Part shown: piece after piece, positions 4,863 to 31,619 of the stretch | Numbering within the stretch: position 1 is the stretch's first letter | How the letters are laid out: each line of letters starts with the position of its first letter | Origin: an uncultured Acidimicrobiaceae bacterium | GTDB taxonomy: Bacteria > Actinomycetota > Acidimicrobiia > Acidimicrobiales > Bog-793 | NCBI GenBank assembly: GCA_963801185.1 | Contig: CAWDDW010000001.1 | Span: 112,928 to 176,927 of the forward strand | Reading direction: 5' to 3' | DNA length: 64,000 bases | Program-made: the position numbers and the translations under genes | The notes under the pieces: model-generated | What the model was told of the DNA's origin: nothing | The model's input: the letters and a program-made list of their open reading frames with translations, nothing else | Database searches by the model: none

Positions 4863-4870
4863 TTCGAAAT

Positions 4871-6161
4871 TTAGTACTCGGGATCTTCCGGCAGCTCCAC
4901 GATCGCGATCGGGCGCCGGACCAGGGGGGCCGTAGCAGCCACGACCGCTAGCACCGGGGCATCTGCGACCTCCAGCGGCACGACAAGCGAGCCCGTCAAC
5001 CGTGCAACCCAGACCGCGGCGGCGGCGGCGATCTCCACCAAAGAGTGAGACTCCTCGGTGACGACAACCTGTCGTCGTCCCAGCGCTCCCAAGCCGGACA
5101 CGCTCCCGACCTCGACTACTGGTACGTGTCGCAGCCGACGCATGACGGAGGCCTCCGCTCGCGCCATGCTCGGGTCCTGATCCTCGAGGGCGGCGAGGAA
5201 CCGATCGGGAGGAGGATCCAAGACGGGCGCCACCGGGCCGTCGAGTTGGGCGAAGACGTCGTCGGCCGGGACAGGTACGCCGTTGGCATCGCTGAGGCCC
5301 TCAAGGAGGAGATCACCATCGGCCATGGTGATGGTCAGGCCCCTCTCACTCAGCGCGATCGCGCCCACCGGCGCGGCACTGTCAGAAGGGAGGCTGCGAG
5401 CAGCGCCGACGACCCAGAACCGTTTGCCTGCCACGAGCCGGACCGAACCCATGGGATTACGAATCCGAGCACCGAGGTCGAGGGCGCGAACCGCCCGCGC
5501 CATCTCCCTGGCCGTTCGGCGTCGATCGACGATCGTCTCGCTGCGGGGCCGGTCGTACCGTCCCCGGTAAAAGCGGGGGCGGTCGGGCTGCCGCGTGGTC
5601 ACAACCTCACCGCGAACGACGGCCGTTACGACAGCAGGAAACGACTCGAGGGCCGCGGCGAAGCACTTGGTGTTCAGCGAGTAGGCCGTCTCGTCCGCGC
5701 TCAGCTCTACCTCGGCAGTGGCCACGATGTCACCGGCGTCCACCTCTTCAGTTAGGAGGTGCCAAGTGACCGCATGGGTGACGGCGCCCGACAACAGCGC
5801 CCAACTCGTGACGTTCCGTCCCGCGAGGTCAGGTAGAGGACCGTCATGGAAGTTCAGCGCGAGCCTCGAAGCGTCGGAGGCTCTCGTCGGGGACGACCCG
5901 GAAATTACCGACGCTGAAGAGCAGTTCGGCCTCGAAGTGGCCGATAGCTGCCGCGAGACCCGCGGCCGGTGAGCGAACAGCTATGCCCCGAGCGGCGGCC
6001 CACGACGCGGCGGCTGGGTGGTCGGATATGACCCCGACGACCTCCAGCCCGCCGCTCAGCGCCAGGTCGGCGCACTCGAGCACGAGCGCGCGGTCGCCGA
6101 CGAAGACTGTCCTCCGCTTGCGGGATCGAATCACTACGGTCCCGGACCGGTTGCTCATCAA
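4871..6161 (-). pseudogene. Formyltransferase-like protein with C-terminal extension; frame broken near 5847-5875 (pseudogene or 1-nt sequence error)
   Basis: ORF 5844..6161 encodes the N-terminal half (...LLFSVGNFRVVPDESLRRFEAR). The catalytic core ALNFHDGPLPDLAGRNVTSWALLSGAVTHAVTWHLLTEEVDAGDIV (N-x-H ... D pattern) continues in the frame of ORF 4871..5794. Skipping one base after ...FEAR restores LNFHDGPLP. Only 8 nt separate its stop from the NRPS start. Confidence 0.7.
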
Positions 6162-6410
6162 CTACACCCCCGCGAGCACAGACCCTCGCACGATCCGCGT
6201 ATCACGACGTAAGGCTATCCGCCCGGGCAACACGAGGTTTCTGGCACCGCACCGATAAGAGGCGATCAGTCGCGAGTTCGACAACGCTCCCGCTCGGCTG
6301 CCATTGACAACAGTTCGCTGGCGACGCCTCAGGCAGCGCACCTTCTCGAACACTCTCGCCCATACCCCACAGTGCGCATCGACCTGGCCGAGCTTCCTCG
6401 GCAGCGCCTC

Positions 6411-8306
6411 TTACGGCCCTTCGGGCCACAAGTCGCTCTCGATCGTTGACAGTGTCTGCCCCGCGAACACCGACCGGCACCAGACTTCGGCCGACCAGAG
6501 TCGGACGCGCAACGCGCCCTGAGCAGACTCCAGGACATCTGCAAACTCACGGGTCGGGAAACCAAACACATCCCTGAATACGCCGTCGGACAAAAATAGG
6601 GGGTTCGCGGCGTCCTCGATCCACGCGCCAGCATCGAACATCATGCCGTAGATCTTCGGTCGGTGGGCGATCTTCCAAGGCAGCAGACCTCGAGCGACGT
6701 CGCGCAGGATGCCCTTGCTCCAAGGGCTCACCCTGAACTCGAGAGGCAGGTTCAGAGCGAGTTCGACGACACGAGGATCGAGAAACGGCACTCGTGCCTC
6801 GACGGAGACTTGCATCATATTCTTGTCCATGCGGCTCAACAGGTGCGAAAGGGTGAAGTCAAGGTCGCGCAACAGCTTCGTCTCGAGCGCAGCCCTCGGT
6901 CCAGCGTGGTGCATGTATGCGGACTCGATTTCCGCCTTGATTGCGTCGTCACCGGCTATCCCATCACCGGTTGTCTCGTCACCCGTAGGGCTGTTCGCAC
7001 CCGATCCGTTGCGGCCTCTCGGAATACGTACGGCGGCTAGCTTTTTCAGCCGCCTGTCTACCGCCCGGAGAGTAGCTAGTGGGTGTCCGAGCATGACCGG
7101 TTCCAGGGTGCGGATCGCCCGCTGGCTCGGCGACAAGAATGTGGCTAAGGGGACAGTTCGCCCGCCGATGTACCCGCCGAACAACTCGTCCGCCCCCTCC
7201 CCCGTCAGAAGGACCTTGATACCACGGCCACGGGCACGCTCGGCCATTTGCGATATGGTCACGGAGCTTGCAGTTGCCAACGGAGCGCCGAAGTGAAGAG
7301 TTGCTGCCACGAAGCCGCTCCTCCAGCCCGATTTCGTGACTTCGAACTGGTCAAGTTCGATTCCCAACGCGTCGGCTACGCGCTGCGCAGCTGGGCCTTC
7401 GTCGAAAGCCGGGTCGCCCTTGTACCTGGCCCCGAAGGCGACGAGATCACTCTTGACCTCCACGGCCAACACGGTGATGAGACTCGAGTCCACTCCGCCG
7501 GAGAGCAAGGTCCCCATCGGAACATCGCCGAGTAGAGCATCGTGGACGGCGGAGCGAAGAGTGCCCTCCAGCTCGGAGACGAGGGTCGAGCGGGTACTCG
7601 CTTGCAACTGCCTTTGGCGTTCCGCGTCTACATGGCTCGTGGCGGAGTCCCAGCGGTGGCTTGTGACCCGTGAAGAGTCGAGTGCGATCTCCAACCAGGT
7701 ACCCGGTGAGAGCCTGCGAATGCCGCTTAGAAGCGTGTCGTCTCCTGGATAGCACGACCAATCGAGGATGCTTCTCCAACCGTCCGTCCGCGCTGATGGT
7801 TTGATGCCGGCCGCCAACAGCGCATCGGGTTCGCTTGCGAACCAGATGGCATCATCCGCGCAGGCTATATACAGAGGCTTGATACCGAAACGGTCACGGG
7901 CCAGCAGCAGGCGCCCAGCCGTGAGGTCGAGCGCGGCGAACGCGAACTGACCGTTGAGACGCGGAAGCACACTTGGACCCCAATGGGCGAGCGCATGCAA
8001 GAGTGTGTCGGTGTCTCCGTCGGACACGAAGGACTCGCTGTCAAATTCACTGCGGATCGCCTTGTGGTTGAAGATCTCTCCATTGAATGAGAGCCACCAG
8101 GCTCCGCTGGGGTGACGCATCGGCTGGCGCGCTCGCTCGCTTACGTCGACGATCGCAAGGCGCGTATGGACAAGCCCGACGTTGTCGAGTATCTCCACGC
8201 CCGACCCGTCAGGACCACGATGCGTGAGGGCGTCACGCATCGCCGCGAGTCGCTCAGGCGAGGGGCTCTGGCCGCGAGGAACCACGCAGCCGCCGATACC
8301 GCACAT
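6411..8306 (-). CDS. Asparagine synthase (glutamine-hydrolysing) family amidotransferase
   Basis: 631-aa ORF. N-terminal MCGIGG supplies the Cys2 Ntn glutaminase nucleophile. PP-loop LLSGGVDSSLI is in the synthetase half. Confidence 0.9.
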   Translation of the reverse strand: MCGIGGCVVPRGQSPSPERLAAMRDALTHRGPDGSGVEILDNVGLVHTRLAIVDVSERARQPMRHPSGAWWLSFNGEIFNHKAIRSEFDSESFVSDGDTDTLLHALAHWGPSVLPRLNGQFAFAALDLTAGRLLLARDRFGIKPLYIACADDAIWFASEPDALLAAGIKPSARTDGWRSILDWSCYPGDDTLLSGIRRLSPGTWLEIALDSSRVTSHRWDSATSHVDAERQRQLQASTRSTLVSELEGTLRSAVHDALLGDVPMGTLLSGGVDSSLITVLAVEVKSDLVAFGARYKGDPAFDEGPAAQRVADALGIELDQFEVTKSGWRSGFVAATLHFGAPLATASSVTISQMAERARGRGIKVLLTGEGADELFGGYIGGRTVPLATFLSPSQRAIRTLEPVMLGHPLATLRAVDRRLKKLAAVRIPRGRNGSGANSPTGDETTGDGIAGDDAIKAEIESAYMHHAGPRAALETKLLRDLDFTLSHLLSRMDKNMMQVSVEARVPFLDPRVVELALNLPLEFRVSPWSKGILRDVARGLLPWKIAHRPKIYGMMFDAGAWIEDAANPLFLSDGVFRDVFGFPTREFADVLESAQGALRVRLWSAEVWCRSVFAGQTLSTIESDLWPEGP

Positions 8307-8398: not shown

Positions 8399-10054
8399 TC
8401 ATCGTGAGCGACGCTCGGTCACAAGCGGCGTCAGTCGTTCTGCCAGCGCTTCGCGCCCGCTGAAGCTCAGCATGTTGTGGTCGAGTTCGTCCATACGGAT
8501 CACCTGAAGGCGAGCGCCCTCGCCGCTTGAGCCAAGGACGGACAGTGCTCGCATGCCGTTCTCGCCGGCGGCGACGGAGAGGCTCTCGTGGTCCTCGGCA
8601 GACAGGATCAGCGTCGTGTCCACATGGCGGTCTGAGAGCCACGTGAGGAGCGCGACCGGATCCCCGCTTGCGGGTTCCTTGCTGCTCTCGTCCCCGGTGA
8701 GCCTGACGGTGTTCCAATAGATCTGGTTGACCAGATGAACGGTCTGCACGCCTAGGGTACCGGCGGCCATCGCTGCAACCCATGCACCGGAGCACAGGCC
8801 CACGAATGTGACGGCTTCGGGGGCGTCCGGTGATAGCTCCAGGGCCGCGCTCACCGCATCCTCGACGAACTCTGGTGCATAGAGCGATGGCCTCTCTGAC
8901 GCCGCCAGGCTGTCTCCGATGCCCCTCAAGTCGAAGCGCAGCGCTCGGATTCCTCGGCAAGCCCAGCTTCTGGCGAGCTCAACCCACTGGCGGGAAGGAC
9001 CGATGTGATGTTCGAAGAACGGGTTGAGGAATACCACAGTGAGGCGGCTTTCTCCGCCGGCCTCGGTGAGCATGCCGAAGAGCCGATTGGCTCCGATGCT
9101 GATCGCGCGCTCGACGACGGGGCGCTCGTCTGGGGTCTTCCCGACAACGGCGAAGGGGCGGTCGTCTGGCGCGAGCGAGTGAGCGTCTGTGGGCAAGGTG
9201 TCAGACAGAAAGGATGTGATGGTCCCGAGGGTGGCTTGACTGAAGACCGCGCCCGATGGCGCCGTCTCGAGAAGCTGTCGCTGGCCGGGCACTTCGAGAT
9301 GTGTGACGAGCGGGTTGGAGATCAACTGCTCGAGCAATGGGGTCGGGGCCTCATCGACCCGGGTGAGCACCATGGTGGGCATCGTCGTATCGATTTGGTC
9401 AGGTAGCTCAAGGGCCGTGAGCCGCGCTGATGTCTCGGGAGAAAAGCATGCTCCCGGTATCTCGGTCCAATCAGGAGGCGCCTGCGCACCGCCGATGGCG
9501 CGGACCGTCAGCCTTTGCAGGAGGTATTGCTCACGCAGAAAGGTCGATCCGCTCGCGCAAGGGTCCCACAGGACGAGCGCTTCGAATCGACCAAGCTCAC
9601 TGGCGACACGCGCTGCCAGCGTGGCTCCTATCCGCAACCCCAGCAGGGCGATTCGCTGCTCGCCGGCATCGCTGGCGAAGCGGATGGCGGCTTTGATGCT
9701 CCACAGCCACGACTCGATGAGGTCGGTGTACGTACCTTGGTCGCCAGAGTCGCCGGTTCCGCAGTAGTCGAAACGGAGCGCGGCGAAGCCGGCACCCGCG
9801 AGTTGGTCCGCCAAGGTTCGGAGCGCTTCATAGCTAGCGTCGTGCTCGCGGCCAACCGGCGGACAGATCACTATTGTGGCTCTGGTGTTCTCGTCGGGCG
9901 GTCGGTGAAGCCAGCCGAAAAGCGGCGTTCCTCGGTCTTCGAACCACGTCGGCACGGCGAGCCCTTGCATGGTTGTGGCCAGCCGCTGGGTGTTGAGCGG
10001 GAGTGGTTCGGTCAACGAGGGAGAGGCGATCGGAGATTCATCGGTGGCCCGCAT
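8399..10054 (-). CDS. Fused tandem alpha/beta-hydrolase-fold protein (two hydrolase-like halves)
   Basis: 551-aa ORF. Half 1: PLFGWLHRPP..IVICPPVGREH..LRFDYCGTGDSGD..LLGLRIGATLAA. Half 2: VVFLNPFFEHH..LRFDLRGIGDSLA..FVGLCSGAWVAA. The start is uncertain: ATG 10054 abuts the divergent PPTase start, and the internal ATG at 9970 (MQGLAVPTWF) is an alternative. Confidence 0.7.
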   Translation of the reverse strand: MRATDESPIASPSLTEPLPLNTQRLATTMQGLAVPTWFEDRGTPLFGWLHRPPDENTRATIVICPPVGREHDASYEALRTLADQLAGAGFAALRFDYCGTGDSGDQGTYTDLIESWLWSIKAAIRFASDAGEQRIALLGLRIGATLAARVASELGRFEALVLWDPCASGSTFLREQYLLQRLTVRAIGGAQAPPDWTEIPGACFSPETSARLTALELPDQIDTTMPTMVLTRVDEAPTPLLEQLISNPLVTHLEVPGQRQLLETAPSGAVFSQATLGTITSFLSDTLPTDAHSLAPDDRPFAVVGKTPDERPVVERAISIGANRLFGMLTEAGGESRLTVVFLNPFFEHHIGPSRQWVELARSWACRGIRALRFDLRGIGDSLAASERPSLYAPEFVEDAVSAALELSPDAPEAVTFVGLCSGAWVAAMAAGTLGVQTVHLVNQIYWNTVRLTGDESSKEPASGDPVALLTWLSDRHVDTTLILSAEDHESLSVAAGENGMRALSVLGSSGEGARLQVIRMDELDHNMLSFSGREALAERLTPLVTERRSR

Positions 10055-10784
10055 GACAACTTATGATCATCCCATGATGTTGGCGGAGCGGGTGAGCCCG
10101 AGGGTCGACCTTCGAGCCGGCGAAGTCCATGTCTTTATAGTAGGCGTCGATGAGTTTCCCGAACATCTCTCTCCGTTGTCAGAGCGGATCGATCCACCTT
10201 CGGGACGGCGCACAACGGATCCTCGTCACCGGGCGGTCGTTGCGGGCAACGTTGCCCTCCGCAGGATGATCTCTTCCGTCCTCGGCATGCCTGCCGAGCT
10301 CGTTCGGATCGATCGGACATGTCCCCATTGCGGTGACTGCCGGCACGGCAAACCTAAGGTGATCGACCCCGTGGCTGGCGAGCTCGACTACAGCATCTCG
10401 TACTCGGGTGCGCACGCGTTGGTCGCACTCGCTCGGGGTTGCCAGGTTGGCGTTGACATAGAAGCGGTAGGAGACGACGATCGCTTGTCGCGCTGGTGTT
10501 TCGCAGGAGAGGAGAGAGTGCTCCTCACAGGGCTGCACTCGCATGAGCGGCACGAGCAAACCGCTCGGTCGTGGGTCCGCAAAGAGTCGGTTGCCAAGGC
10601 GTGTGGCCTCGGGTTGTTCATGCCGATGAGCCGAATCGTGGCGACCGGCGACCGGTCCGGCTGGAAGTTGCCGTCGCGCGACTGGCAGGTGGTGGACATC
10701 GACGTCCCGACAGGTCACGTGGCAGCCGTGGCCTGTGACGACCCGGTGGCGTCGGTGACGATCAGCAAGTGGACGTGGACGTGA
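10053..10784 (+). CDS. 4'-phosphopantetheinyl transferase, Sfp type
   Basis: Track ORF 9969..10784. Motifs: HGKPKV, SISYSGAHALVA, VGVDIE, WVRKESVAKACG. ATG 10053 (MTTYDHP) or 10074/10077 is preferred over the track start. Confidence 0.8.
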   Translation: MTTYDHPMMLAERVSPRVDLRAGEVHVFIVGVDEFPEHLSPLSERIDPPSGRRTTDPRHRAVVAGNVALRRMISSVLGMPAELVRIDRTCPHCGDCRHGKPKVIDPVAGELDYSISYSGAHALVALARGCQVGVDIEAVGDDDRLSRWCFAGEERVLLTGLHSHERHEQTARSWVRKESVAKACGLGLFMPMSRIVATGDRSGWKLPSRDWQVVDIDVPTGHVAAVACDDPVASVTISKWTWT

Positions 10785-10802
10785 GGGACCGGAGCGGCTC
10801 GG

Positions 10803-11048
10803 ATGTCTGATAGAGATGCGATCCTGCAGCTTCTCTCTCAGGAGACCGAGCTCGACCCCGCGGCTTTCGGGGCGGAGTGGGCGCTCATAGATCTCGGCAT
10901 CTCATCATTCGCCGTGATGAAGCTCCTTGTGGCGCTCGAAACGCGCTTTGACATTGAGTTCTCCGACGAGCAGATGGAAGAGATCGTGAGTTCGCCGGTC
11001 TCGGAGCTGCCGACGGTCGTCGAGCGAGCGCTCGCCGCCAAGCCCTGA
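10803..11048 (+). CDS. Stand-alone acyl carrier protein (81 aa)
   Basis: Small acidic helical ORF with the carrier-protein attachment region LIDLGISSFAVMKLLVALE. It sits 18 nt after the PPTase and 3 nt before the ligase. Confidence 0.7.
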   Translation: MSDRDAILQLLSQETELDPAAFGAEWALIDLGISSFAVMKLLVALETRFDIEFSDEQMEEIVSSPVSELPTVVERALAAKP

Positions 11049-11051
11049 GGC

Positions 11052-12569
11052 ATGGACGTCCTCGAGCTCGTACTCGAGCAAGCCAGGGCTCACCCGGACC
11101 GACCCGCGGCGAAGGACCTCACGACCGATCTGAGCTTCGCCGAGCTCGCGGGCGCTGTCGCAAGGCTGGCTGCCGGGCTGTTCGAACATGGCGTGCGCGC
11201 GGGGGATCGTGTCGGCCTCCATTTGGCGAACTCTGTCGACTTCCTCGTGTCGACGCTTTCGTGCATGTGGGTGGGGGCGATCTTCGTGCCTCTCGCACAT
11301 GCAGATCCAGTCTCGAGGATCGAGGAGATCATCACCGATTCCGAACCGGCCGTGGTCCTCGCACTCCCCGGCTCTCGGGGCACAACGGCGACGGAGATTC
11401 CCTATGCAGGCCGTCCCGTGGCCTCACCCCACGCTCTCTCCCGGCCGGGCGCCGCGCCGCCGCCTGCCGCCAGCGAGGAGAGCCGCCCGGCGTACTGCAT
11501 CTACACCTCTGGCACGACCGGCTCTCCAAAGGGCGTGCTCATCGATCACAAGGCCTTCCTCGCTGCAGTTCTCTCCGCTGCTGAGATACTCGGTCTCGAC
11601 GATCGGACTCGGGCGCTGTGCGTGTCGCCGTTTCATTTCGATGGGTCGTACGGCACCTTGTTCCCTGTGCCCGTAACGGGCGGGTCCCTAGTGATACCGC
11701 GTCGGGAGTCGTTGATGCTGCCGCGGCTCTTCTTCAAGGTCGTCGCTGACGAGGTGGTCAACCATACGAGCCTCTCACCGACCTACCTTCGGCTCCTGCT
11801 CTCGAGCCCTCACCTGTCCGACCTCAATCGGACGTCACTCCGGACGATGGCGGTTGGCGGAGAGGCCCTCCTGCCCGCCGACCTCCTGGCATTGTGGGAC
11901 GCTGTCCCGAATCTGCGCGTCTTCAATCGGTACGGCCCCACGGAGACGACGATCGCCGTCACCACCCACGAGGTGACGGCGGAGATGGTCATGGACGGCG
12001 GCCTCGTTCCGATCGGTCGTCCGCACCCGGGCGTTCGCTTCCACATCCTCGACGCCGAAGGCCACGTCGTCGTAGGACCCCGCGAGGTGGGAGAGCTATA
12101 CATCGGCGGTTCGCAGCTAATGACCGGGTACTGGGGCGATCCGAACCTCACGGCGGAGGTGATGCGGACTGACGCAGTTCCCGGAGAGCTCTGCTACAGG
12201 ACTCGTGACCTCGTGTTCCGCGACGAAGCCGGTAGCTACTTCTATGTGGGCCGAGCCGACCGCGTGGTGAAGCGCAGCGGCGTGAGGATCTCGCTCGACG
12301 AGATGGCTGGAGCCTTGAGTAACCTTGATAGCGTCTCGGCGGCTCACTGCGTCAGCTACGACCGCTCCGGTGACCTCGCGATAGCGGCTTTCGTTGTGGC
12401 GACGACGGCTGTCAGTGCCCCGGAGCTTCGTCACGCGGCCCGGGAGATCCTTCCAGCGACAATGCTGCCAGACGTGATCGAAATCGTCGAAGGCCTCCCT
12501 CTGACCGGCTCGAACAAGGTCGATGAGAACATGCTGCTCGCGGCGGCCGGGCTCGGAGAGCGGGAGTAG
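11052..12569 (+). CDS. Stand-alone AMP-forming acyl-CoA/acyl-ACP ligase (ANL adenylating enzyme)
   Basis: 505-aa ORF. Motifs: AYCIYTSGTTGSPKGVLIDH, NRYGPTETT, GELYIGGSQLMTGY, YRTRDL, GRADRVVKRSGVRISLDEM, SNKVD. Confidence 0.9.
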   Translation: MDVLELVLEQARAHPDRPAAKDLTTDLSFAELAGAVARLAAGLFEHGVRAGDRVGLHLANSVDFLVSTLSCMWVGAIFVPLAHADPVSRIEEIITDSEPAVVLALPGSRGTTATEIPYAGRPVASPHALSRPGAAPPPAASEESRPAYCIYTSGTTGSPKGVLIDHKAFLAAVLSAAEILGLDDRTRALCVSPFHFDGSYGTLFPVPVTGGSLVIPRRESLMLPRLFFKVVADEVVNHTSLSPTYLRLLLSSPHLSDLNRTSLRTMAVGGEALLPADLLALWDAVPNLRVFNRYGPTETTIAVTTHEVTAEMVMDGGLVPIGRPHPGVRFHILDAEGHVVVGPREVGELYIGGSQLMTGYWGDPNLTAEVMRTDAVPGELCYRTRDLVFRDEAGSYFYVGRADRVVKRSGVRISLDEMAGALSNLDSVSAAHCVSYDRSGDLAIAAFVVATTAVSAPELRHAAREILPATMLPDVIEIVEGLPLTGSNKVDENMLLAAAGLGERE

Positions 12570-13209
12570 CCGACGTCGTCAGGGAGTTAAGCCGCCGCTG
12601 TGAGAGCATCCTCGTCAGCGCTTCGGCGTGAGCCCGGAGAGCCTGGACATCACACCGACGAGCCGGCCGGCCCAAATGGGAGCGAAGGCACCGGAAATGG
12701 GCTCGACCAGCGAGTTTGTAGCTGTTCGGGCGCATGGTGCTGTCGGTCGCGACGAGACCAGGCACCCTCTCGGCGGCTCGCTCTGGGGGTCCGCGCCTCG
12801 ACAGGATCGGGATGATACGTTCAGACCGATGTCGCCGCTCGACAGCCGCGATCCTTCCTGCCAAGCGTGGTCGACGACGCTCTGCCCGCATCCCGATGAG
12901 CCCGGCGGGTGCACCTGTCAAAGCTGCCTTGATGCGCCGATCCCGCAGCCCGCGGAGAGCGTCCGCTACGAGGAGAGCTGGCGTCCGCCCAGGTCGCGCG
13001 TCTGGCGCTTGCTCAAACCCCGATCTGATGCCTTTGCCAAGCAGATCGACGCATACCTCGATCTCTTAGCAGCGGAGTCTGCCCCGTTCAGCGGGCACCG
13101 CAGTCCCGAGGAGGCTGCGGAGCGACGTAGGAGCTGCGAGCGGGCCGGCGCTCGGCAGGTGCACAGAGTGAGCTGACGGCGGTCCCTCGCTCCGGGTGCC
13201 CCGGTCGCG

Positions 13210-14988
13210 TCATCCGAGCAGCTCATCGACACACCGCTGAGCGTCGAGGCATACGCGCATCCTGCTCTTCGGCGAGGGAAGGTAATGCGTGAAGTAGCGC
13301 ACGCCCTCGGTCAAGGCCCCGAGTATCCAGAGCCGTGGCTGGACCTGCCCACTGTGGTCGATCGGATGGAAGTCCTCGGAGAGCGCCACACTGCCGACCG
13401 GAGTCTCGCCGTACTTGAACTGCTGGAGCCGACCCTGCCGGTAGAGCTTCGTCAAGAGGGTCGACGAGGAGCGATGCAAAGTCGGATCTTCGAGATACCC
13501 CTGGATGAGCAGGTCGACCTGAGATGAGTAGGGGGTGTCGAGCTCCCTCGAGCGGATGGTCCGTCTTGCATGGGAAGTGGTCAGTCTCGGTCCTGGGCCG
13601 AAGGGGACTCTCACGACTCCAGCATCCATGAGCGCGAGCAGCTGCTGAGAGCGGACAGCGGGGGGTCCAGCCACCAGACGGCTCACTTTGCTCCGTATGT
13701 TGGAGTGGAAGTCGAGGTAGGACTCGAGCGAAAGCCCGCCGAACTCAATGACCGAGCGCATCGCGTCGCGTTGGAAGCGGAGAACCTCGTAAGCAGCCTT
13801 CACCGCACTGGAGGGTCCCTTGAGTGCCTCTTCCAGATCGGCTTCGATCATGGCGTACACACGGTCCTCGTAGTCCTTTGAGGAGACGAAACCCTCCTCG
13901 GGAGCGAAGAACTGACGGTTCGCGTCAAAGGAGCCGTAGCGTGCCGCGTACGGGGCGACGGCCGTCTCGAAGTCAGCGCCGATGGATGACTGCTCGAGGC
14001 GGGCGCGTACCTCCTTGGCAGCCTCAGGCCCAGCTACCAAAGAGGCGGAATGGATGTAGTACCGGGCCTGCATCTCGGCGAGAATGAGAGGTAGGAGCAT
14101 CGTTCTTACATCGACTTGGCCGGCGCCAGTTCGAATCGCTTTGACCGCCTCGGGGGTGCAGATGACTGGCGCGTATTCATCAGTCTCGTCAAGGGCTCCG
14201 ACGGCTTTGGCGCAGTAAGGAAAGCCGCTCCGGGAGAACAGATAAATGAGCGGCTCACGACCGCTCGCGTGATACCGAAGCCGATCGTTGCGCTCGGCAA
14301 ATGATCCGCCGTTGCCGAGCGTGAGCGCTGTGATCACATCGGTTGCCACGAGGCCCATGCCGACGACTCCGACGGAGGCCGTCGACGGGACACGTTCGAG
14401 GTAATTGGTAACCGGGTAGGGCCTCACGAGGTGTTCAGGATGATCGAGGTTCTCTGTGTGACCAGTTGTCAGCACGACGTGGTCCACGGCAATGACCTCG
14501 CCGTTGGCGAGCAACACGCGCTCGCTCCCGTCCGGTTGCCTCTCGATGTCGACCGCGAGGGCTCGGTGCTCGATGACCTCGAGGGACCACGGCGCCTCTT
14601 CCAAGAGAGTCTGGTAGAACCATTGGAGATAGGCGCCCATGACGCGCCTGGGCAGATAATCGTGCGGCGAGATCTCCCGTCCGGACGGCCCGACTCTGCA
14701 GTGGTCACCATTCCAGCGATAGCCAACCCGCCTTGCCCACTCATACAGGCCGATTCCGTAACGCGGCGGTGTTCCCTCGTAGCTCCAGGGGTAAAGCGAC
14801 AGCTGGCCGCACGGGGTGTTCAGCAGCAAGTAGTCCGGCTGATCCAACACGTACACACCTGGGCCGGCCGGACCAACCTCTATTACGTGGACGCGGGTGG
14901 CGTCGGGTCGAGTGCGCGCGGCATCGACAAGGCGCTCCAGCACGCACAAACCCCATGATCCGAGACCGACAAGAGCTACCTCTGTCAC
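13210..14988 (-). CDS. Large FAD/NAD(P)-binding domain protein (about 590 aa)
   Basis: Track ORF 13210..15135. The dinucleotide-binding stretch VALVGLGSWGLCVLERL follows directly after the internal GTG at 14988, which I take as the likelier start. A second Rossmann-like stretch is SVGVVGMGLVATDVI. The family call rests on fold pattern only. Confidence 0.6.
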   Translation of the reverse strand: MTEVALVGLGSWGLCVLERLVDAARTRPDATRVHVIEVGPAGPGVYVLDQPDYLLLNTPCGQLSLYPWSYEGTPPRYGIGLYEWARRVGYRWNGDHCRVGPSGREISPHDYLPRRVMGAYLQWFYQTLLEEAPWSLEVIEHRALAVDIERQPDGSERVLLANGEVIAVDHVVLTTGHTENLDHPEHLVRPYPVTNYLERVPSTASVGVVGMGLVATDVITALTLGNGGSFAERNDRLRYHASGREPLIYLFSRSGFPYCAKAVGALDETDEYAPVICTPEAVKAIRTGAGQVDVRTMLLPLILAEMQARYYIHSASLVAGPEAAKEVRARLEQSSIGADFETAVAPYAARYGSFDANRQFFAPEEGFVSSKDYEDRVYAMIEADLEEALKGPSSAVKAAYEVLRFQRDAMRSVIEFGGLSLESYLDFHSNIRSKVSRLVAGPPAVRSQQLLALMDAGVVRVPFGPGPRLTTSHARRTIRSRELDTPYSSQVDLLIQGYLEDPTLHRSSSTLLTKLYRQGRLQQFKYGETPVGSVALSEDFHPIDHSGQVQPRLWILGALTEGVRYFTHYLPSPKSRMRVCLDAQRCVDELLG

Positions 14989-15188
14989 GGCGCCCAACTG
15001 TCGGATCGAATAGTAGCTGCCCCCAGCCCCACCCCTACAAGCTACCGCGGCTGAGCCAACCCGTCGCACGCTGCTGGTTTGGCCTCCCTCGAGCGTCGAT
15101 TCCGAACAGGCGGCTCGGGGTTCCGGCCCCATCACGCCGGGCCGCGCTCGATTGAGACGGTAGTCGTAGCTCTCTATGCTGGTCTCGG

Positions 15189-15237
15189 GTCATCGACTTC
15201 GAGCAGCGGAGGTGTGTTATCCCAGTCGTCATCGACT
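15189..15237. repeat. 10-nt direct repeat GTCATCGACT (15189-15198 and 15228-15237) in the divergent intergenic region between the FAD protein gene and metA-like gene
   Basis: Read directly from the sequence. The two exact copies are 39 nt apart start-to-start and lie 70-120 nt upstream of GTG 15309. Confidence 0.5.
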
Positions 15238-15308
15238 CGCCGGATTCCGCGCCTTCCTCTGGGAGCGGGTCCCCGCGGAGCGCTCGTGGCCGCAGTACCG
15301 ATACCCCG

Positions 15309-16292
15309 GTGCTCGAGATCGCGCTAGTGAACAACATGCCGGATGGGGCTTTTGCTGAAACGGAGCGACAGTTCACGCGCTTGCTCGAGGACGCGTCCGA
15401 CGACCTCGAGTTGCGTGTGGGCCTCTACAGCCTGCCGGGGCTCCCGCGAAGCGAGGATACGGCTGGTTACATCTCGTCTCGCTACTACCCGCTCGAGCGA
15501 CTGTTTGGAATGCAGGCCGATGCCGTGATCGTGACGGGCACCGAGCCGCTCGCAGAGCACCTCACAGCCGAGCCGTACTGGGAGGCATTGACCGGTTTGA
15601 TCAACTGGGCGGCGGAATCCACCGTCTCTGCCGTCCTCTCGTGCTTGGCAGCCCATGCCGCCGTTCTGCTCTTCGACGGGATCGAGCGCGAGCCACTTGC
15701 CGAGAAGTGCTCCGGCGTCTTCTCTCACGAAGTGGTCACGTCGCACACGCTCGTCGAGGGGATGGCGGGCCCGATCTTCGTGCCGCACTCGCGGCTTAAC
15801 GACGTGCCCTACCGCTCGCTAAGTGAGCACGGTTATACGAGCTTCCTCAGTTCACACGAGCTCGACTGGACCGTGCTTGCACGAGAGCGCGGCAACTGTC
15901 TCTTCATGTTCGTCCAGGGCCACCCCGAGTACTCGACCTCGAGCCTATTGCGGGAGTACCGGCGCGATCTGCATCGGTTCATCCGAGGAGAACGTGACCA
16001 TTCTCCGCCCGTGCCGAGCAACTACCTCGATGAGGAAGGCGAGCGGTTGCTGCGGGAGTTCGCCGCGGCAACACGGACACAACCGGGGTCGGCCGACGTG
16101 ATGGAAAGGTTTCCTTTCGATCACGTCAGGCAGCACGTGGTAAATACCTGGCGGGCACCGGGCAAGCGATTGTACGCGAACTGGATCAAAGAAATCCTGC
16201 GTCGCAAGCATCACAGGAAAACAGGTCGCGTCAGTGCCGCGGGCGAGCAGCCGGTGAGCGAAGAACAAGGAACGAGGTCTGCTGGTGCGTGA
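15309..16292 (+). CDS. metA: Homoserine O-acyltransferase (MetA/HTS family), short N-terminus
   Basis: LEIALVNNMPDGAFAETERQFTRLL resembles the MetA ILNLMP...TE.QF.RLL region. Active-site Cys lies in VLSCLAAHAAV. The His/Glu motif is VQGHPEYS. GTG start with no obvious SD. Confidence 0.8.
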   Translation: MLEIALVNNMPDGAFAETERQFTRLLEDASDDLELRVGLYSLPGLPRSEDTAGYISSRYYPLERLFGMQADAVIVTGTEPLAEHLTAEPYWEALTGLINWAAESTVSAVLSCLAAHAAVLLFDGIEREPLAEKCSGVFSHEVVTSHTLVEGMAGPIFVPHSRLNDVPYRSLSEHGYTSFLSSHELDWTVLARERGNCLFMFVQGHPEYSTSSLLREYRRDLHRFIRGERDHSPPVPSNYLDEEGERLLREFAAATRTQPGSADVMERFPFDHVRQHVVNTWRAPGKRLYANWIKEILRRKHHRKTGRVSAAGEQPVSEEQGTRSAGA

Positions 16293-17580
16293 CGAGACGA
16301 TCGCCATCCACGGTGGCTACACACCGGACTCGACGAACGCCGTGGCCGTACCCATCTACCAGACCGTTGCCCATGAATTCGAAGACGCCGACCATGCTGC
16401 TGCGGTGTTCGACATGGACATCCCGGGCTTTCACTACAACAGGCTCAACAATCCGACGAACCAAGTCCTCGAGTCCCGCCTTGCTGCGCTCGAACGAGGC
16501 GTCGGGGCTCTGACCTTGAGTTCCGGAACGGCGGCTGTCCTCTACTCGGTCCAGAACATCGCCGAGATCGGGGACAACATCGTCTCGACTCCGCAGCTGT
16601 ACGGGACCACCTACACGATGTTCGTGCACATCTTGCCGAGCCAGGGACTCGAAGTCCGGTTGGCGGCGGACGACTCACCGGCCGCACTCGAGCCGCTCAT
16701 CGACACGCGCACCAAAGCGATCTTCTGCGAGAGCATCGGCAATCCTGCCGGCAACGTCGTGGACATTGAGGCTGTTGCCGCCCTCGCCCACAGCCACGGG
16801 ATCCCGCTCGTCGTCGACAACACGATCGCCACACCGATGATGCTCAAGCCGATCGAGCACGGTGCTGACATCGTCGTGCACTCCCTGACGAAGTTCATTG
16901 CGGGCCACGGTACGACGCTCGCCGGAGCCATCGTCGACAGCGGCAAGTTCCCCTGGGCGGAGCACCCGGACCGGTTCCCGATGTTCTCCCGGCCAGAGCC
17001 GTCCTTTCACGGAGTGGTGTACCCGGAGCGCTTCGGCGAGGCCGCCTATATCGTTCGCTGCAGGACGGTGGGCCTTCGGAACGCAGGGGCGACGCTGTCG
17101 CCCTTCAGCGCCTTTCTCGTGCTGCAGGGACTCGAGACCATGTCGGTGCGACTCGACCGCCACGAGGCCAACGCGCGGGCAGTTGCGGCGTACCTCGCCG
17201 CCGATCGGCGTGTCGCGTGGGTGGACTTTGCCGGCTTTGCCGAGCATCCCCATCACGAGCTAGCCCAGCGATACCTCAAAGGGCGTTGCTCCTCGCTCTT
17301 CACCTTCGGCGTGGTCGGCGGCTACGAGGCAGGGCTGAGGTTCTTCAACGCCGTGAAACTCTTCAAGCGCCTCGTGAACCTCGGCGATGCAAAGTCGCTC
17401 GTGAGCCATCCCGCCTCGACCACCCATAGACAGCTCACTCCCGACGACTTGCGGGTCGTCGGTGTTACACCGGACATGATCCGTCTGTCGGTGGGGATCG
17501 AGCATATCGACGACCTGATCGCAGACATCGACCAGGCGCTGGGCATCGCCTGCGCCGGCGATCCATCGCCGGAGACATGA
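16285..17580 (+). CDS. metY: O-acetyl/O-succinyl-homoserine sulfhydrylase family PLP enzyme (gamma-replacement; MetY-like)
   Basis: 431 aa. N-terminus IAIHGGYTPDSTNAVAVPIYQT. PLP-lysine motif HSLTKFIAGHG. 8-nt overlap with the metA-like gene. Confidence 0.85.
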   Translation: MRDETIAIHGGYTPDSTNAVAVPIYQTVAHEFEDADHAAAVFDMDIPGFHYNRLNNPTNQVLESRLAALERGVGALTLSSGTAAVLYSVQNIAEIGDNIVSTPQLYGTTYTMFVHILPSQGLEVRLAADDSPAALEPLIDTRTKAIFCESIGNPAGNVVDIEAVAALAHSHGIPLVVDNTIATPMMLKPIEHGADIVVHSLTKFIAGHGTTLAGAIVDSGKFPWAEHPDRFPMFSRPEPSFHGVVYPERFGEAAYIVRCRTVGLRNAGATLSPFSAFLVLQGLETMSVRLDRHEANARAVAAYLAADRRVAWVDFAGFAEHPHHELAQRYLKGRCSSLFTFGVVGGYEAGLRFFNAVKLFKRLVNLGDAKSLVSHPASTTHRQLTPDDLRVVGVTPDMIRLSVGIEHIDDLIADIDQALGIACAGDPSPET

Positions 17581-17659
17581 GCAGCGGAAAACCCGGACTT
17601 GCCGCAATTCGAAGCGGTACCATTTTCCGTGATCGGGTGAATGCCCAGTTGGAGGAGAT

Positions 17660-18073
17660 TTGGTGGATCGAGCGAGCCAGTGCGATGGCAACTACGGCCG
17701 CGGGCTATCGGTAGGTGTCGACATGATCTCTGTGTCGGAGGTGTCGGACGCGATCCGAGAGTTCGGCGATCTTTATGTCAACCGTGTGTTCACAAGCCAC
17801 GAGATCGACTGCTCGACCGGAGACGAGTTGGCGACGGCACGTCACTTCGCGGCTTGTTTTGCCGCGAAGGAGGCGACCATCAAGGTCCTCGGTGCGGACG
17901 GAGAGGTGCCCGGCTGGGGTTCGATAGAGGTGAAGCGCGAGGCGGGGGGACGTACGTCCCTTCGCTTGACCGGACTGGCCGCCGAGCTCGCTGAGCGCGC
18001 TCGACTCAAGACGTTCGCCGTGTCTATGACGCACCGGGGCGACCTGGCTGCAGCGGTGGTGATCGCAAGGTGA
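17660..18073 (+). CDS. acpS: Holo-[acyl-carrier-protein] synthase (AcpS-type PPTase)
   Basis: 137 aa. Motifs: LSVGVDMISVSEV, FAAKEATIKVLG, SMTHRGDLAAAVVIA. GGAGGAG lies 5-7 nt upstream of the TTG 17660 / GTG 17663 start. Confidence 0.8.
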   Translation: MVDRASQCDGNYGRGLSVGVDMISVSEVSDAIREFGDLYVNRVFTSHEIDCSTGDELATARHFAACFAAKEATIKVLGADGEVPGWGSIEVKREAGGRTSLRLTGLAAELAERARLKTFAVSMTHRGDLAAAVVIAR

Positions 18074-18363
18074 CCTCACTGGACGAGCAATCGATCAGCC
18101 AGGAGGTCCGCCGCGTTCTGGACCAGTACGGGCGGCTCTCGGTGCCGATGGCCGAACTCGCTGACTCCGACGAGCTTTACCGCGTGGGCATGACCTCTCA
18201 CGCGGCCGTCAGCGTCATGCTGGCGCTCGAGGCCGCGTTCAAGGTGCAGTTCCCCGATGCCATGCTGCGGCAGAACACCTTTTCGTCGGTGGACGCAATC
18301 GCGGCCGCTGTCGGCCTGCTGATCAAGTTCCAAACAGGCGATGGGCTTGACCCTCTTCCCTGA
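18070..18363 (+). CDS. Dedicated carrier protein (97 aa)
   Basis: Attachment region LYRVGMTSHAAVSVMLALE. GTGA overlap with acpS. Its 3' end overlaps the ligase start. Confidence 0.7.
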   Translation: MTSLDEQSISQEVRRVLDQYGRLSVPMAELADSDELYRVGMTSHAAVSVMLALEAAFKVQFPDAMLRQNTFSSVDAIAAAVGLLIKFQTGDGLDPLP

Positions 18364-19255
18364 GGACAACTTCAGGACGCAGCTCGTAGCTGCTGGTCTA
18401 CTCCTTCCGACGGACGTCGACGGGATATATCTCCGCTCTGGGGCGTTCGAGAGCGTTGTGCGAGCAATAGACGATCTCGTGAGTGCAGCCGGCGCCGACG
18501 AGGACGCACAGGTCTTGTATTTCCCGGTTGTGATGCCACGGATCGTCCTCGAGCAGTCCGAGTATGTGCGGGCGTTCCCGGATCTGGTGGGCTCGGTCAA
18601 CACATTCGAGGGTGACGACGCGCTGCACGCAGAGATCCTGCACCGCCTCGAGCGCGGAGAGAACTGGGCCGAGCTGTTCGAGCCCTCCGACGTTGTGCTC
18701 TGCTCCGCAGGTTGCCACCTGCTGTACCCGCTTTGTCGTGGGCGCTTGATCGAGCACGGTCGTCGCTTCGAGATCTTTGGTCAGTGCTTCCGTCACGAAC
18801 CGAGCCTCGACCCGGCGCGGATGCAGGCCTTCCGCATACACGAGTTCGTCTACGTCGGAGATGCCGAGGACGCCGTGGCGCATCGCGATACGTGGCTCGA
18901 GCGCGCGGCTCATCTGCTGGACGGCCTCGGGCTGACGGTCGAGGCCGTTCTCACGACCGACTCCTTCTTCGGCCGGGCGGGCAAGCTCCTCTCTGCCCGC
19001 CAACGAGCCGAGTCCCTCAAGCACGAGATCGTGACGTCCGTGCGGCCAGGAGAAGGTCCGATCTCCGTTGTCTCGTGCAACTGTCATCTCGACCACTTCG
19101 GCCGTGGATTCGGTATCGAGACGGCAGACGGAGCCGTCGCACATAGCGCGTGCGTGGGATTCGGGACCGAACGCATCACGCTCGCGCTGCTGGCGGCTCA
19201 CGGGCTCGACCGTGATCGCTGGCCCTCTTCCATCACATCCCAGCTGTGGCCGTGA
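18341..19255 (+). CDS. Amino acid:[carrier-protein] ligase, truncated class II aminoacyl-tRNA-synthetase homologue
   Basis: 304 aa, catalytic core only. Class II motif 2-like GQCFRHEPSLDPARMQAFRIHEFVYVG and motif 3-like GFGTERITLALLAAHG. Cys-rich segments CSAGCH and SCNCH. A carrier-protein gene lies immediately upstream, as in the described aa:CP ligases. Confidence 0.7.
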   Translation: MGLTLFPEDNFRTQLVAAGLLLPTDVDGIYLRSGAFESVVRAIDDLVSAAGADEDAQVLYFPVVMPRIVLEQSEYVRAFPDLVGSVNTFEGDDALHAEILHRLERGENWAELFEPSDVVLCSAGCHLLYPLCRGRLIEHGRRFEIFGQCFRHEPSLDPARMQAFRIHEFVYVGDAEDAVAHRDTWLERAAHLLDGLGLTVEAVLTTDSFFGRAGKLLSARQRAESLKHEIVTSVRPGEGPISVVSCNCHLDHFGRGFGIETADGAVAHSACVGFGTERITLALLAAHGLDRDRWPSSITSQLWP

Positions 19256-28885: not shown

Positions 28886-29012
28886 GCGAGTGGCCGCGGC
28901 AAGGGTCGCGCAACGTCGCGACTGATGAGCCGCTTTGTCCCGGTGGTAGCGTCTAAGTCCGCCGAGGAGCGACGTGCTCGCTCTGTTGAATCCCTGAAGG
29001 AGGTCCCTGCCC

Positions 29013-29243
29013 GTGCTTACCGACGCCCTGGTGGTCGTCGACGTCGTCGCTGCTCTCGGGCTGATCGTCCTGATCCTCTTGCACAGCGGACGCGGTGGCG
29101 GTCTATCGGACATGTTCGGTGCCTCGGCGGGCTCGTCTGCGGCGGGATCGACAGTGGCCGAGCGCAACCTCGACCGGATCACGATCACGTTCGTCCTGGT
29201 CTTTGTCTTCGTGACGATCTCGCTCGCGCTGCGGTGGAGTTGA
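29013..29243 (+). CDS. secG: Preprotein translocase subunit SecG
   Basis: 76 aa with two TM segments and the central LHSGRGGGLSDMFG motif. GAAGGAGG lies 9 nt upstream of GTG 29013. Canonical position after tpiA. Confidence 0.85.
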   Translation: MLTDALVVVDVVAALGLIVLILLHSGRGGGLSDMFGASAGSSAAGSTVAERNLDRITITFVLVFVFVTISLALRWS

Positions 29244-31311: not shown

Positions 31312-31395
31312 GTCGGAGTGGCGGAATAGGCAGACGCGCTAGGTTGAGGGCCTAGTCCGGGCAACCGGGTGGGGGTTCAAGTCCCCCCTCCGACA
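31312..31395 (+). tRNA. tRNA-Leu (anticodon GAG)
   Basis: Hand-folded cloverleaf. Acceptor GTCGGAG/CTCCGAC plus discriminator A. D arm GCG-GAATAGGCAGA-CGC. Anticodon arm CTAGG-TTGAGGG-CCTAG. Long variable arm CCGG-GCAA-CCGG. T arm GGGGG-TTCAAGT-CCCCC. No encoded CCA. Confidence 0.9.
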
Positions 31396-31616
31396 CGATT
31401 TGGGACACGCGCCAGGTCGGCGGTTACCCGCACCTGGTGAGTGCGGTCGTCGTAGGTCAGCCGTAGCCCAAGCGCTGCGTACGCTGCGGATCTCTCCTCC
31501 GGTGTGGCTTCCTGGAGGATGCTGCTGATCCCGCCAAGCTCCTCGACCAGAGCGGCGATCTCGCCCGGCGTGAGCGTGGAGGGGGCAACCGTCGCAGCCA
31601 CTCGGGCTTTGCGCAT
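31377..31616 (-). pseudogene. C-terminal remnant of a recombinase (resembles tails of actinobacterial serine-recombinase-family proteins)
   Basis: 79-aa ORF LTPGEIAALVEELGGISSILQEATPEERSAAYAALGLRLTYDDRTHQVRV. There is no catalytic N-terminal part upstream. The stop codon lies inside the tRNA T-arm. Confidence 0.35.
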
Positions 31617-31619
31617 CTC

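Follow-up and report, generated by a model that had tools for sequence, protein, structure and literature searches.

A conserved carrier-protein-dependent gene cassette linking an aminoacyl-tRNA synthetase-like ligase to homoserine-type enzymes and a predicted N-hydroxylase

Introduction

We analysed a 64,000-nucleotide stretch of DNA from an uncultured Acidimicrobiaceae bacterium (assembly GCA_963801185.1, contig CAWDDW010000001.1, positions 112,928 to 176,927; hereafter the window), in which five consecutive open reading frames (ORFs) at 15309-19255 encode a MetA-family homoserine O-acyltransferase-like enzyme (HTS), a MetY-type pyridoxal phosphate (PLP)-dependent enzyme, an AcpS-type phosphopantetheinyl transferase (PPTase), a small carrier protein (CP) and an amino acid:CP ligase that resembles an aminoacyl-tRNA synthetase (aaRS). 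Together with a flavoenzyme and a tandem alpha/beta hydrolase encoded nearby, these genes form a cassette that recurs in about 40 loci of other genomes and metagenomes. Comparison of these loci indicates that the coupling of HTS and MetY with the CP system is functional and far wider than the window. The reading that we favour, with about as much confidence as doubt, is that the window holds one variant of a conserved CP-dependent biosynthetic cassette, in which HTS, MetY and N-hydroxylase chemistry would follow a logic analogous to that of D-cycloserine biosynthesis.

Ligases of this kind (Bll0957, Bll6282 and Atu2573, with their CPs) were reportedly described by Mocibob and colleagues in 2010 and 2013, with structures deposited as PDB 3MEY, 3MF1 and 4H2S. 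A review of 2022 gives their biological role as still unassigned (PMC9437257), and our full-text searches of the literature found no later work that assigns one. In the literature searched, we also found no description of a cassette in which an FzmM-like hydroxylase, HTS and MetY are joined with ATP-grasp or adenylation (A) domain partners; the founding paper of 2010 may already mention the MetY and HTS genes of Bradyrhizobium. The family of the ligase is thus known and this member of it is new, and the combination of genes in the cassette appears to be new.

Conservation of the cassette

An earlier reading of the window from its sequence alone (the original prediction) had placed the five ORFs at 15309-19255 and had proposed that the ligase is tied to a MetA/MetY-like pair. 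All five ORFs were found there, and Pfam and NCBIfam profiles assigned each to the family that had been named (Table 1). The junctions that it had described were confirmed by reading the sequence: HTS and MetY overlap by 8 nt (GTG 16285, TGA 16290-92), AcpS and CP share GTGA (18070-18073), and CP and ligase overlap by 23 nt (ATG 18341, TGA 18361-63). The spacer between metY and acpS is 79 nt long (17581-17659), not 80 nt as had been stated. It contains a Shine-Dalgarno-like GGAGGAG ahead of the acpS start and its RNA structure is not unusual (z = -0.6); a search of the spacer for a terminator and a separate promoter, which had been named as signs against a single unit, found no site resembling either. 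Regulation by methionine or S-adenosylmethionine (SAM) had been named as a sign against the proposal, and an Rfam search upstream of HTS and across the window found no SAM or other riboswitch, the sole match in the window being one tRNA (31312-31395). A 45-codon ORF at 17577-17714, reported by gene callers, overlaps the metY stop by ATGA and runs into the acpS start, and nothing supports it as a real gene. An identical ligase is present on contig JBKQRP010000040 of GCA_052143955.1 and on JGI contigs.

We scanned one genome per species for the ligase and obtained 80 loci, mostly from Acidimicrobiales, which were screened by tblastn with the window proteins and by ORF clustering. Fifteen loci carry a ligase 61-79% identical, the window being counted and one locus from a separate look-up (L090) included, and are here called type-1 loci. 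The flavoenzyme, HTS, MetY, ligase and tandem hydrolase are each found in 13-14 of the 15, AcpS and CP are usually present too, and many loci carry in addition one to three genes for ATP-grasp L-amino-acid ligases, while the flanking genes vary between lineages. In L090, which has five overlapping genes, the HTS/MetY, MetY/AcpS and AcpS/ligase junctions all overlap.

Loci anchored on HTS supported this independently. In a metagenome scan, each of the 22 loci with an HTS at least 50% identical carries at least one cassette partner, and at 40-49% identity a partner was found in 19 of 58 loci, or in 7 of the 11 that extend at least 5 kb on both sides. A compact arrangement is that of L095, where genes for a Polysacc_synt flippase, AcpS, CP, ligase (50% identical to that of the window), a small ORF, the tandem hydrolase, the flavin monooxygenase, an ATP-grasp ligase, HTS and MetY form one co-directional ten-gene run, with 6 of the 9 junctions overlapping or abutting. 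Locus L093 keeps HTS, MetY, the ATP-grasp genes, the flavoenzyme and the hydrolase; here and in L140 an A domain 49-50% identical to one encoded in the window lies with AcpS and a CP of the ligase-partner type (CP_b), beside HTS, MetY, the flavoenzyme and the hydrolase, and no aaRS-like ligase was detected in either locus. The A domain thus appears to displace the ligase in these two loci, as a non-orthologous displacement. The same A domain occurs in L134 and L176 with the flavin monooxygenase, HTS and the hydrolase, in a less complete set. In L155 the genes for the hydrolase, a ligase of 37% identity and an acyl-CoA-dehydrogenase-like (ACAD) protein lie on one strand, head-to-head with HTS; only 3 nt separate HTS from a CP gene downstream of it, and genes for a MetY-like enzyme and a PLP decarboxylase come next.

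The association extends to a second phylum. Bradyrhizobium sp. STM 3562 (L177; CP120694.1, 6003-16508) carries an orthologue of Bll0957 that is 90% identical, and, as in the window, genes for MetY and HTS lie nearby. The order is CP, then ACAD, ligase and a 294-aa protein, then a class IV aminotransferase, then an alpha/beta hydrolase with MetY and HTS; the MetY-HTS pair is 3.2 kb downstream of the ligase, and the methionine-salvage genes mtnA and mtnP lie beyond the CP gene. Since this pair lies near a Bll0957 orthologue, the link to homoserine enzymes is also present in the organism in which the family was first described.

Chance or inherited synteny, in which a housekeeping metA-metY pair merely stands beside an unrelated acpS-CP-ligase operon, was already disfavoured and we regard it as very improbable. 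The 79-nt gap between the two blocks in the window would fit it, as would the high conservation of MetY and the MetY-HTS-cupin pairs that have no ligase in reach at 4 of the 6 Xanthobacteraceae-type loci. It is opposed by the persistence of the set where gene order (at least four orders), neighbourhood and phylum change, by the genes of L090 and L095 that overlap across the supposed boundary, by the partners found at all of the closer HTS-anchored loci, and by the A domain that takes the place of the ligase where the other genes remain. We therefore consider the coupling to be functional, given the rearranged orders, the overlaps across the boundary, the displacement of the ligase and the occurrence in two phyla, and the tie between the ligase and the MetA/MetY-like pair in the original prediction is borne out. 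Most relatives are uncultured Acidimicrobiales, and part of the conservation is shared ancestry; it is for this reason that the rearranged and cross-phylum loci carry most weight.

The ligase and its carrier protein

The ligase scored 377.7 against NF005479 (cut-off 357), and its residues 25-299 aligned in HMMER with the PDB sequences of Bll0957 at E-values of 2e-59 to 2e-61. It also matched the catalytic regions of seryl-tRNA synthetase (SerRS) from M. kandleri (E 3.5e-12) and M. barkeri (E 1.4e-5), with HMMER aligning it to SerRS residues 306-507 of 527 only. The best Foldseek matches of an AlphaFold2 model of the ligase (pLDDT 81.6) were the Bll0957 structures, with TM scores of 0.76-0.79 normalised on either protein, over the full length, whereas on methanogen-type SerRS the model covered under half of the target, in the catalytic half only (TMt 0.45-0.49). 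Identity to Bll0957 in the structural alignment was 35-37%. Because the match to Bll0957 is full-length and that to SerRS only partial, the sequence and the model indicate that the ligase consists of a class II aaRS catalytic core akin to methanogen-type SerRS, with no tRNA-binding domain, in keeping with the original assignment to the type described by Mocibob and colleagues.

Three residues of the ligase, C125, E168 and C271, align with the zinc-ligand positions of Bll0957, which we take to be Cys131, Glu176 and Cys279 (chain index minus 20). Across 85 homologues both cysteines are always kept and the acidic residue is never other than E or D, so that the Cys/Glu/Cys site known from Bll0957-type ligases appears to be kept, and metal binding is predicted. 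The window ligase differs from the Bll0957 type in two residues beside the zinc ligands, with Tyr replaced by His126 and Gly by Ala270.

As in the Bll0957-type systems, a dedicated CP gene adjoins that of the truncated ligase. This CP (CP_b) scored 91.4 against NF005480 (cut-off 72), and its gene overlaps that of the ligase and adjoins that of AcpS, which agrees with the claim that the ligase has a CP and an AcpS of its own. AcpS scored 66.7 against TIGR00556 (cut-off 45.35) and 45.2 against the acpS equivalog model TIGR00516, below the cut-off of 59.8, and therefore fits a dedicated rather than a housekeeping PPTase. The presence of its own AcpS and its actinobacterial (Acidimicrobiales) origin set the system of the window apart from the Bll0957-type systems.

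The original prediction had suggested that a homoserine-derived product might be loaded by the ligase. We compared 17 ligases linked to the cassette with 68 that have no HTS or MetY nearby, using conservation thresholds of 85% and 80%, and no alignment column, including those around the zinc ligands, separated the two groups. Specialisation of the ligase for a homoserine product was accordingly dropped as a candidate, and this part of the original prediction is not supported. Ligases of the Mocibob type are characterised by ATP-dependent aminoacylation of the phosphopantetheine arm, with specificity for Gly or Ala. As the active-site residues are the same in ligases with and without the cassette, the most likely substrate of the window ligase is a common small amino acid rather than a homoserine derivative.

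A different setting, the type-2 operon, surrounds the ligases with 60% identity or less; its genes encode AcpS, CP, ACAD, ligase, DUF1839, a GH2-like protein and the tandem hydrolase. The six-gene unit of CP, ACAD-like protein, ligase, DUF1839, GH2-like protein (~830 aa) and tandem hydrolase was seen from Acidimicrobiia to Alpha- and Betaproteobacteria; examples are listed in Table 1. Unlike these proteobacterial and type-2 operons, the window has an FzmM/CreE-like flavoenzyme in place of the ACAD-like protein and lacks the DUF1839 and GH2-like genes. From the residues shared by ligases with and without the cassette we infer that ligase, CP and hydrolase may form a generic module that supplies the same, probably small, amino acid to different pathways, to which the homoserine and N-hydroxylase genes would be an add-on.

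HTS and MetY

The catalytic residues of both enzymes are conserved. The triad of HTS (C112, H205 and E207, numbered from 15309) aligns with C142, H235 and E237 of the E. coli enzyme, and the homoserine-binding arginines R193 and R249 are kept. HTS stays below the curated MetA cut-offs, with scores of 340.4 against NF003776 (cut-off 358; the query began at 15309, and a longer N-terminus might raise this score), 130 against TIGR01001 (cut-off 495) and 121.5 against NF047918 (cut-off 460.5). Its frame is open for ~150 nt upstream of 15309, back to a stop at 15153, and orthologues have 30-45 extra N-terminal residues with a common I-x-(L/V)-V-I motif. The NCBI call on the identical contig starts HTS at ATC 15192, giving 366 aa, and another in-frame ATC, at 15219, has a GGAGG ahead of it (15208-12). 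The true start of HTS is probably upstream of 15309, at one of these two non-canonical ATC codons.

MetY scored 579.5 against TIGR01326, the O-acetylhomoserine/O-acetylserine (OAH/OAS) sulfhydrylase subfamily (cut-off 495.1), and fell below the equivalog models, the best being NF004757 (631, cut-off 790). Its best PDB matches are the O-acetylhomoserine sulfhydrylases 8sf5 and 7kb0 (E 4e-136), and its PLP-lysine motif HSLTKF aligns with YSMTKF of 8sf5. The fusaric acid enzyme Fub7 (PDB 8ERB) matched with an E-value of 2e-122, nearly equal to those of true sulfhydrylases. Since Fub7, which forms a C-C bond, scores almost as well, the sequence does not fix the nucleophile that MetY would use.

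These similarities bear on an alternative in which HTS and MetY keep the ancestral O-acyl-homoserine sulfhydrylation and supply homocysteine or methionine, with the flavoenzyme and CP acting on a sulfur amino acid or on glycyl- or alanyl-CP. The retained triad and arginines of HTS, the subfamily score and best PDB matches of MetY, the identity of MetY and HTS to the Xanthobacteraceae-type pairs (63% and 45%) and to the Bradyrhizobium pair (62% and 43%), and the position of the latter near mtnA and mtnP would all suit such a role. Yet the cassette holds no sulfur-related or methyltransferase gene, Rfam detected no SAM riboswitch, and the tight translational coupling with AcpS and the ligase and the HTS-CP operon seen in L090, L095 and L155 would go unexplained. 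We therefore treat homocysteine supply as an unlikely account of the cassette.

A further alternative concerns the acyl donor. HTS enzymes work by a ping-pong mechanism in which the acyl group passes from a phosphopantetheine thioester to Cys142. An aminoacyl-S-CP, possibly oxidised, might in principle take the place of the usual thioester, forming an acyl-enzyme on the cysteine from which homoserine would be esterified; the mechanism itself, the conserved cysteine of the window HTS, the CP gene 3 nt after HTS in L155, and the lack of a condensation domain in profile scans of the cassette are compatible with this. It is a decidedly doubtful proposal, as the aminoacyl group would be wasted when MetY expelled it, and the type-2 operons, with the same ligase, CP and hydrolase, manage with no HTS.

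The flavoenzyme

Divergent from the HTS operon lies the gene of a flavoenzyme that the original prediction overlooked and that is a conserved member of the cassette, being present in 14 of the 15 type-1 loci. It matched PDB 8cp2, an L-aspartate N-hydroxylase, with an E-value of 4e-51, and shares with FzmM, CreE and AlaI (PDB 8CP2; PMC10404684) the fold, the domain order, the catalytic Asn and the Arg409/412/416 cluster; N62, R409, R412 and R416 of 8cp2 correspond to its own N106, R453, R456 and R460.

The substrate chamber is different. Aspartate is bound in the entry chamber by Arg13, Arg276 and Asn413, and the N413E substitution abolishes aspartate hydroxylation (PMC10404684). Relative to 8cp2 the flavoenzyme of the window carries the changes R13 to W, R266 to K, R276 to E, N413 to D and V571 to F, with W61, E320 and D457 standing, in its own numbering, for Arg13, Arg276 and Asn413. 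All cassette orthologues that extend over the positions concerned share the W, K, D and F replacements, position 276 is E or D in all but one, and position 413 is Asp in all 15 sequences compared. Thus, unlike FzmM, CreE and AlaI, cassette members have Trp, Glu or Asp, and Asp at the three positions. In addition, no fumarase/aspartase-family match, and hence no nitrosuccinate lyase of the CreD/FzmL type, was found among the window ORFs scanned or the conserved clusters of the related loci.

Because the aspartate-binding residues are replaced and no lyase gene was seen, we predict that the flavoenzyme N-hydroxylates an amine that is not L-aspartate, and it should not be filed as an aspartate hydroxylase. 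The nitrite-forming aspartate-nitrosuccinate pathway was rejected as a candidate on the same two grounds.

Neighbouring genes and other features of the window

Table 1. Features of the window and type-2 operons at related loci
Sequence	Position	Strand	Feature	Basis
Window	8399..10054	-	ABH2, tandem alpha/beta hydrolase, 551 aa	Pfam Hydrolase_4 + Abhydrolase_6, two halves
Window	9969..10784	+	Sfp-type PPTase	Pfam ACPS, E 2e-10; weak HetI-type NCBIfam match
Window	10803..11048	+	CP_a, second free-standing carrier protein, 81 aa	Pfam PP-binding, E 3e-8
Window	11052..12569	+	Free-standing nonribosomal peptide synthetase (NRPS)-type A domain, 505 aa	AMP-binding, TIGR01733
Window	13210..15135	-	FzmM/CreE-fold class B flavin monooxygenase, divergent from HTS operon	PF13454; PDB 8cp2
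Window	15192..16292	+	MetA-family (HTS) homoserine O-acyltransferase-like enzyme; first canonical start 15309	Pfam HTS, E 7e-58
Window	16285..17580	+	MetY-type PLP-dependent O-acylhomoserine gamma-replacement enzyme, 431 aa	PF01053, E 1e-123
Window	17660..18073	+	AcpS-type PPTase, dedicated to adjacent CP	Pfam ACPS, E 1e-13
Window	18070..18363	+	CP_b, 97 aa, type paired with amino acid:CP ligases	NF005480; PP-binding, E 2e-6
Window	18341..19255	+	Amino acid:CP ligase, 304 aa	NF005479 'amino acid--[acyl-carrier-protein] ligase'
L179, Azospirillum sp. TSH58 plasmid	8479-16088		Annotated type-2 operon
L180, Mycetohabitans rhizoxinica pBRH01	8434-16432		Annotated type-2 operon
L089			Six-gene operon

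Left of the flavoenzyme, the tandem hydrolase ABH2 is a second conserved cassette gene that the original prediction missed, as it did the ATP-grasp ligases, which are found in the relatives. Orthologues of ABH2 (550-620 aa) are present in 13 of the 15 type-1 loci, in L093-L095, and in the type-2 operons of Azospirillum and Mycetohabitans, and a search of the PDB with ABH2 returned generic esterases only. Its distribution suggests that ABH2 is a conserved partner of amino acid:CP ligase systems, which probably releases or transfers a CP-bound product.

The neighbouring Sfp-type PPTase has an uncertain start, gene callers giving 141-271 aa. L010 and L097 retain both the second carrier protein, CP_a, and the A domain, whose orthologues there are 64-65% identical; the A-domain orthologues of L093, L134, L140 and L176 are 48-50% identical. 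The best PDB match of the A domain is that of LgrA module 2 (E 7e-94), which presumably activates glycine for linear gramicidin. The specificity code, aligned by hand on GrsA motifs, reads DGGSMVRIAK with an Arg at position 322; it is non-canonical and unreliable, and matches no standard code. By homology, the A domain is a candidate for a second amino-acid-loading enzyme of an extended cassette.

Beyond ABH2, positions 1-8306 on the minus strand hold a hybrid polyketide synthase (PKS)/NRPS stretch. It comprises a PKS ketosynthase cut short by the edge of the window (1-1407), an NRPS A-T module with a luciferase-like monooxygenase interrupting its A domain (1404-4862), an ORF with weak similarity to formyltransferases (4871-5794) and an AsnB-type amidotransferase (6411-8306). 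None of these genes was seen beside the cassette in the related loci screened, and they may therefore belong to a separate or a fused cluster. The gvg (formylaminooxyvinylglycine) cluster was considered as a relative of the cassette on account of the formyltransferase-like ORF and rejected, as this ORF lies outside the conserved set; the described gvg gene set showed no sign of a MetA/MetY-type pair.

Right of the cassette the genes are of a housekeeping nature (an MDMPI-family gene, nadA, uvrC, rapZ, gap, pgk and tpi). Further along, the tRNA is followed by a gene for an OLD-family AAA_21/TOPRIM nuclease (32215-34497) and, on the minus strand, by one for an Mrr-type restriction endonuclease (34583-35659); the region 31312-35659, which has a lower G+C content (0.62-0.64), looks like a small defence island inserted at the tRNA. 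An SBP_bac_5 solute-binding gene at 28925-31154 is split into two overlapping ORFs in different frames, and the JGI contig has a single product of 639 aa, so that the split may be a frameshift or an assembly difference.

In some relatives the surroundings are of another kind. In Tsukamurella tyrosinosolvens plasmid 13 (L178, 6740-16909) the ligase, an acyl carrier protein and a PPTase lie inside an exopolysaccharide-type cluster that encodes a polyprenyl glycosylphosphotransferase, several glycosyltransferases and a flippase-like protein, with a distant tandem-hydrolase homologue at its end. Such a setting might point to a glycopolymer that is aminoacylated. On the flanks of L093, L094 and L007 there are Wzy_C and glycosyltransferase genes.

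Such contexts raise the possibility of a Dlt-like module that aminoacylates a cell-envelope glycopolymer or decorates it in another way, for which the homoserine and N-hydroxylase enzymes would make the substituent. DltA and DltC, which serve the D-alanylation of teichoic acids, offer a precedent, in that a small dedicated CP outside an NRPS line receives an amino acid from an ATP-dependent ligase; some homologous loci here are in polysaccharide clusters. DltA differs in belonging to the ANL superfamily, whereas the window ligase has an aaRS fold, and no DltB or DltD homologues are present here. The Tsukamurella cluster, the Polysacc_synt flippase gene that precedes the L095 cassette in the same orientation, the genes flanking L093, L094 and L007, and the GH2-like protein of the type-2 operons lend the idea some appeal. 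Against it, the association is anecdotal, no MBOAT or DltB-like transferase was seen, and in the window the cassette stands between PKS/NRPS genes and housekeeping genes. We regard glycopolymer decoration as an improbable role; since it concerns the fate of the product, it would be compatible with the pathway proposed below.

Proposed pathway

What we propose about function beyond family membership is inferred from homology and conserved residues. By strong homology, AcpS would convert the 97-aa CP to its holo form, and the zinc-type ligase would use ATP to attach an amino acid to it as a thioester. The conserved catalytic residues suggest that HTS O-acylates L-homoserine and that MetY, in a PLP-dependent reaction, exchanges the gamma-acyloxy group for a nucleophile. 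The altered substrate chamber of the flavoenzyme points to N-hydroxylation of an amine other than L-aspartate, possibly the aminoacyl-S-CP; the loss of carboxylate-binding arginines would fit such a substrate, as an aminoacyl-S-CP has no free carboxylate. The ACAD-like flavoprotein of the type-2 and Bradyrhizobium-type loci might fill a similar oxidative role.

The remaining steps are speculative. The N-hydroxylated amine, or another non-sulfur nucleophile, might attack the PLP-bound vinylglycine intermediate, which would give an N-O- or N-C-linked amino acid derived from homoserine. In the relatives, ATP-grasp ligases could then join this product to the small amino acid held on the CP; in the window, the extra A domain and CP or the AsnB-like enzyme might do so instead. 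The tandem hydrolase would finally release or transfer the product. There are chemical precedents for parts of this scheme: the N-O-C(gamma) bond of canavanine is acted on by an enzyme of family PF01053 (PMC9533460), and bacterial aminooxy vinylglycines derive from homoserine (PMC13232609).

Several observations weigh against the proposed pathway. The ATP-grasp gene of most relatives is absent from the window, where not even a remnant was found. No cassette protein is better conserved than MetY (70-89%), as would be typical for a housekeeping enzyme, and MetY and HTS are no more diverged from the alpha-proteobacterial pairs than from those of distant cassettes. The intact equivalents of Cys142, His235 and Glu237 and both arginines in HTS, and the true sulfhydrylases among the best PDB matches of MetY, leave room for the two enzymes simply to make homocysteine, as they may do. 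There is no HTS or MetY near the type-2 operons, and the link of the pair to the ligase is weaker in the Xanthobacteraceae-type MetY-HTS-cupin loci, where only 2 of the 6 with enough flank have a ligase, ~7.5 kb upstream. Finally, the proposal of an N-O bond is drawn by analogy.

Comparison with known systems

The analogy is with the D-cycloserine pathway, which yields an N-O-C linked amino acid. Kumagai and colleagues are said to have assigned in 2010 the families of its enzymes, with DcsE an O-acetyltransferase, DcsD a PLP enzyme of beta-replacement with hydroxyurea, and DcsG an ATP-grasp enzyme. DcsA and DcsB make the hydroxyurea that DcsD consumes (PMC10214352). The cassette resembles this set in combining an acyltransferase of the methionine/cysteine pathways, a sulfhydrylase-type PLP enzyme, an N-hydroxylating enzyme and, in most relatives, an ATP-grasp ligase. 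None of the proteins is orthologous: a MetA fold stands against a MetX fold, PF01053 against a CysK fold, and a flavin against a haem hydroxylase. The substrate in the window would moreover be homoserine, one carbon longer than serine, and a CP system is present only here.

The sequence of the window MetY is also like that of Fub7 of the fusaric acid pathway, a PF01053 enzyme similar to O-acetylhomoserine sulfhydrylases. LolC and the C-terminal part of RtxA (rhizobitoxine) are other MetY-family enzymes of specialised metabolism. Fub7, LolC and RtxA differ from the enzyme of the window in acting on free substrates, in fungal or rhizobial pathways, with neither a CP nor an N-hydroxylase as partner.

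Taken a step further, the amino acid:CP ligase systems of Actinomycetota and Proteobacteria could be one arm of an unrecognised CP-dependent pathway, in which a MetA/MetY-type pair would convert homoserine to a gamma-substituted N-O (aminooxy, canaline-like) or N-C amino acid by way of an amine N-oxidised by an FzmM- or ACAD-like flavoenzyme, for use as a small peptide antimetabolite or as an envelope-glycan substituent. We put this forward only tentatively and consider it unlikely. If true, it would at last assign a biological role to the aaRS-like ligases of 2010.

For these ligases, the cassette provides the question of function with a defined set of partners, namely HTS, MetY, a flavoenzyme of FzmM or ACAD type, a hydrolase and an ATP-grasp enzyme or A domain. 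The same MetY-HTS neighbours stand at the founder locus of Bradyrhizobium, an organism that can be cultured and manipulated. A subfamily of FzmM-like enzymes with a remodelled substrate chamber would widen the scope of that N-hydroxylase fold, and if the cycloserine-like logic is true, the product would be a new N-oxygenated amino acid derived from homoserine, of a class that is rich in antimetabolites.

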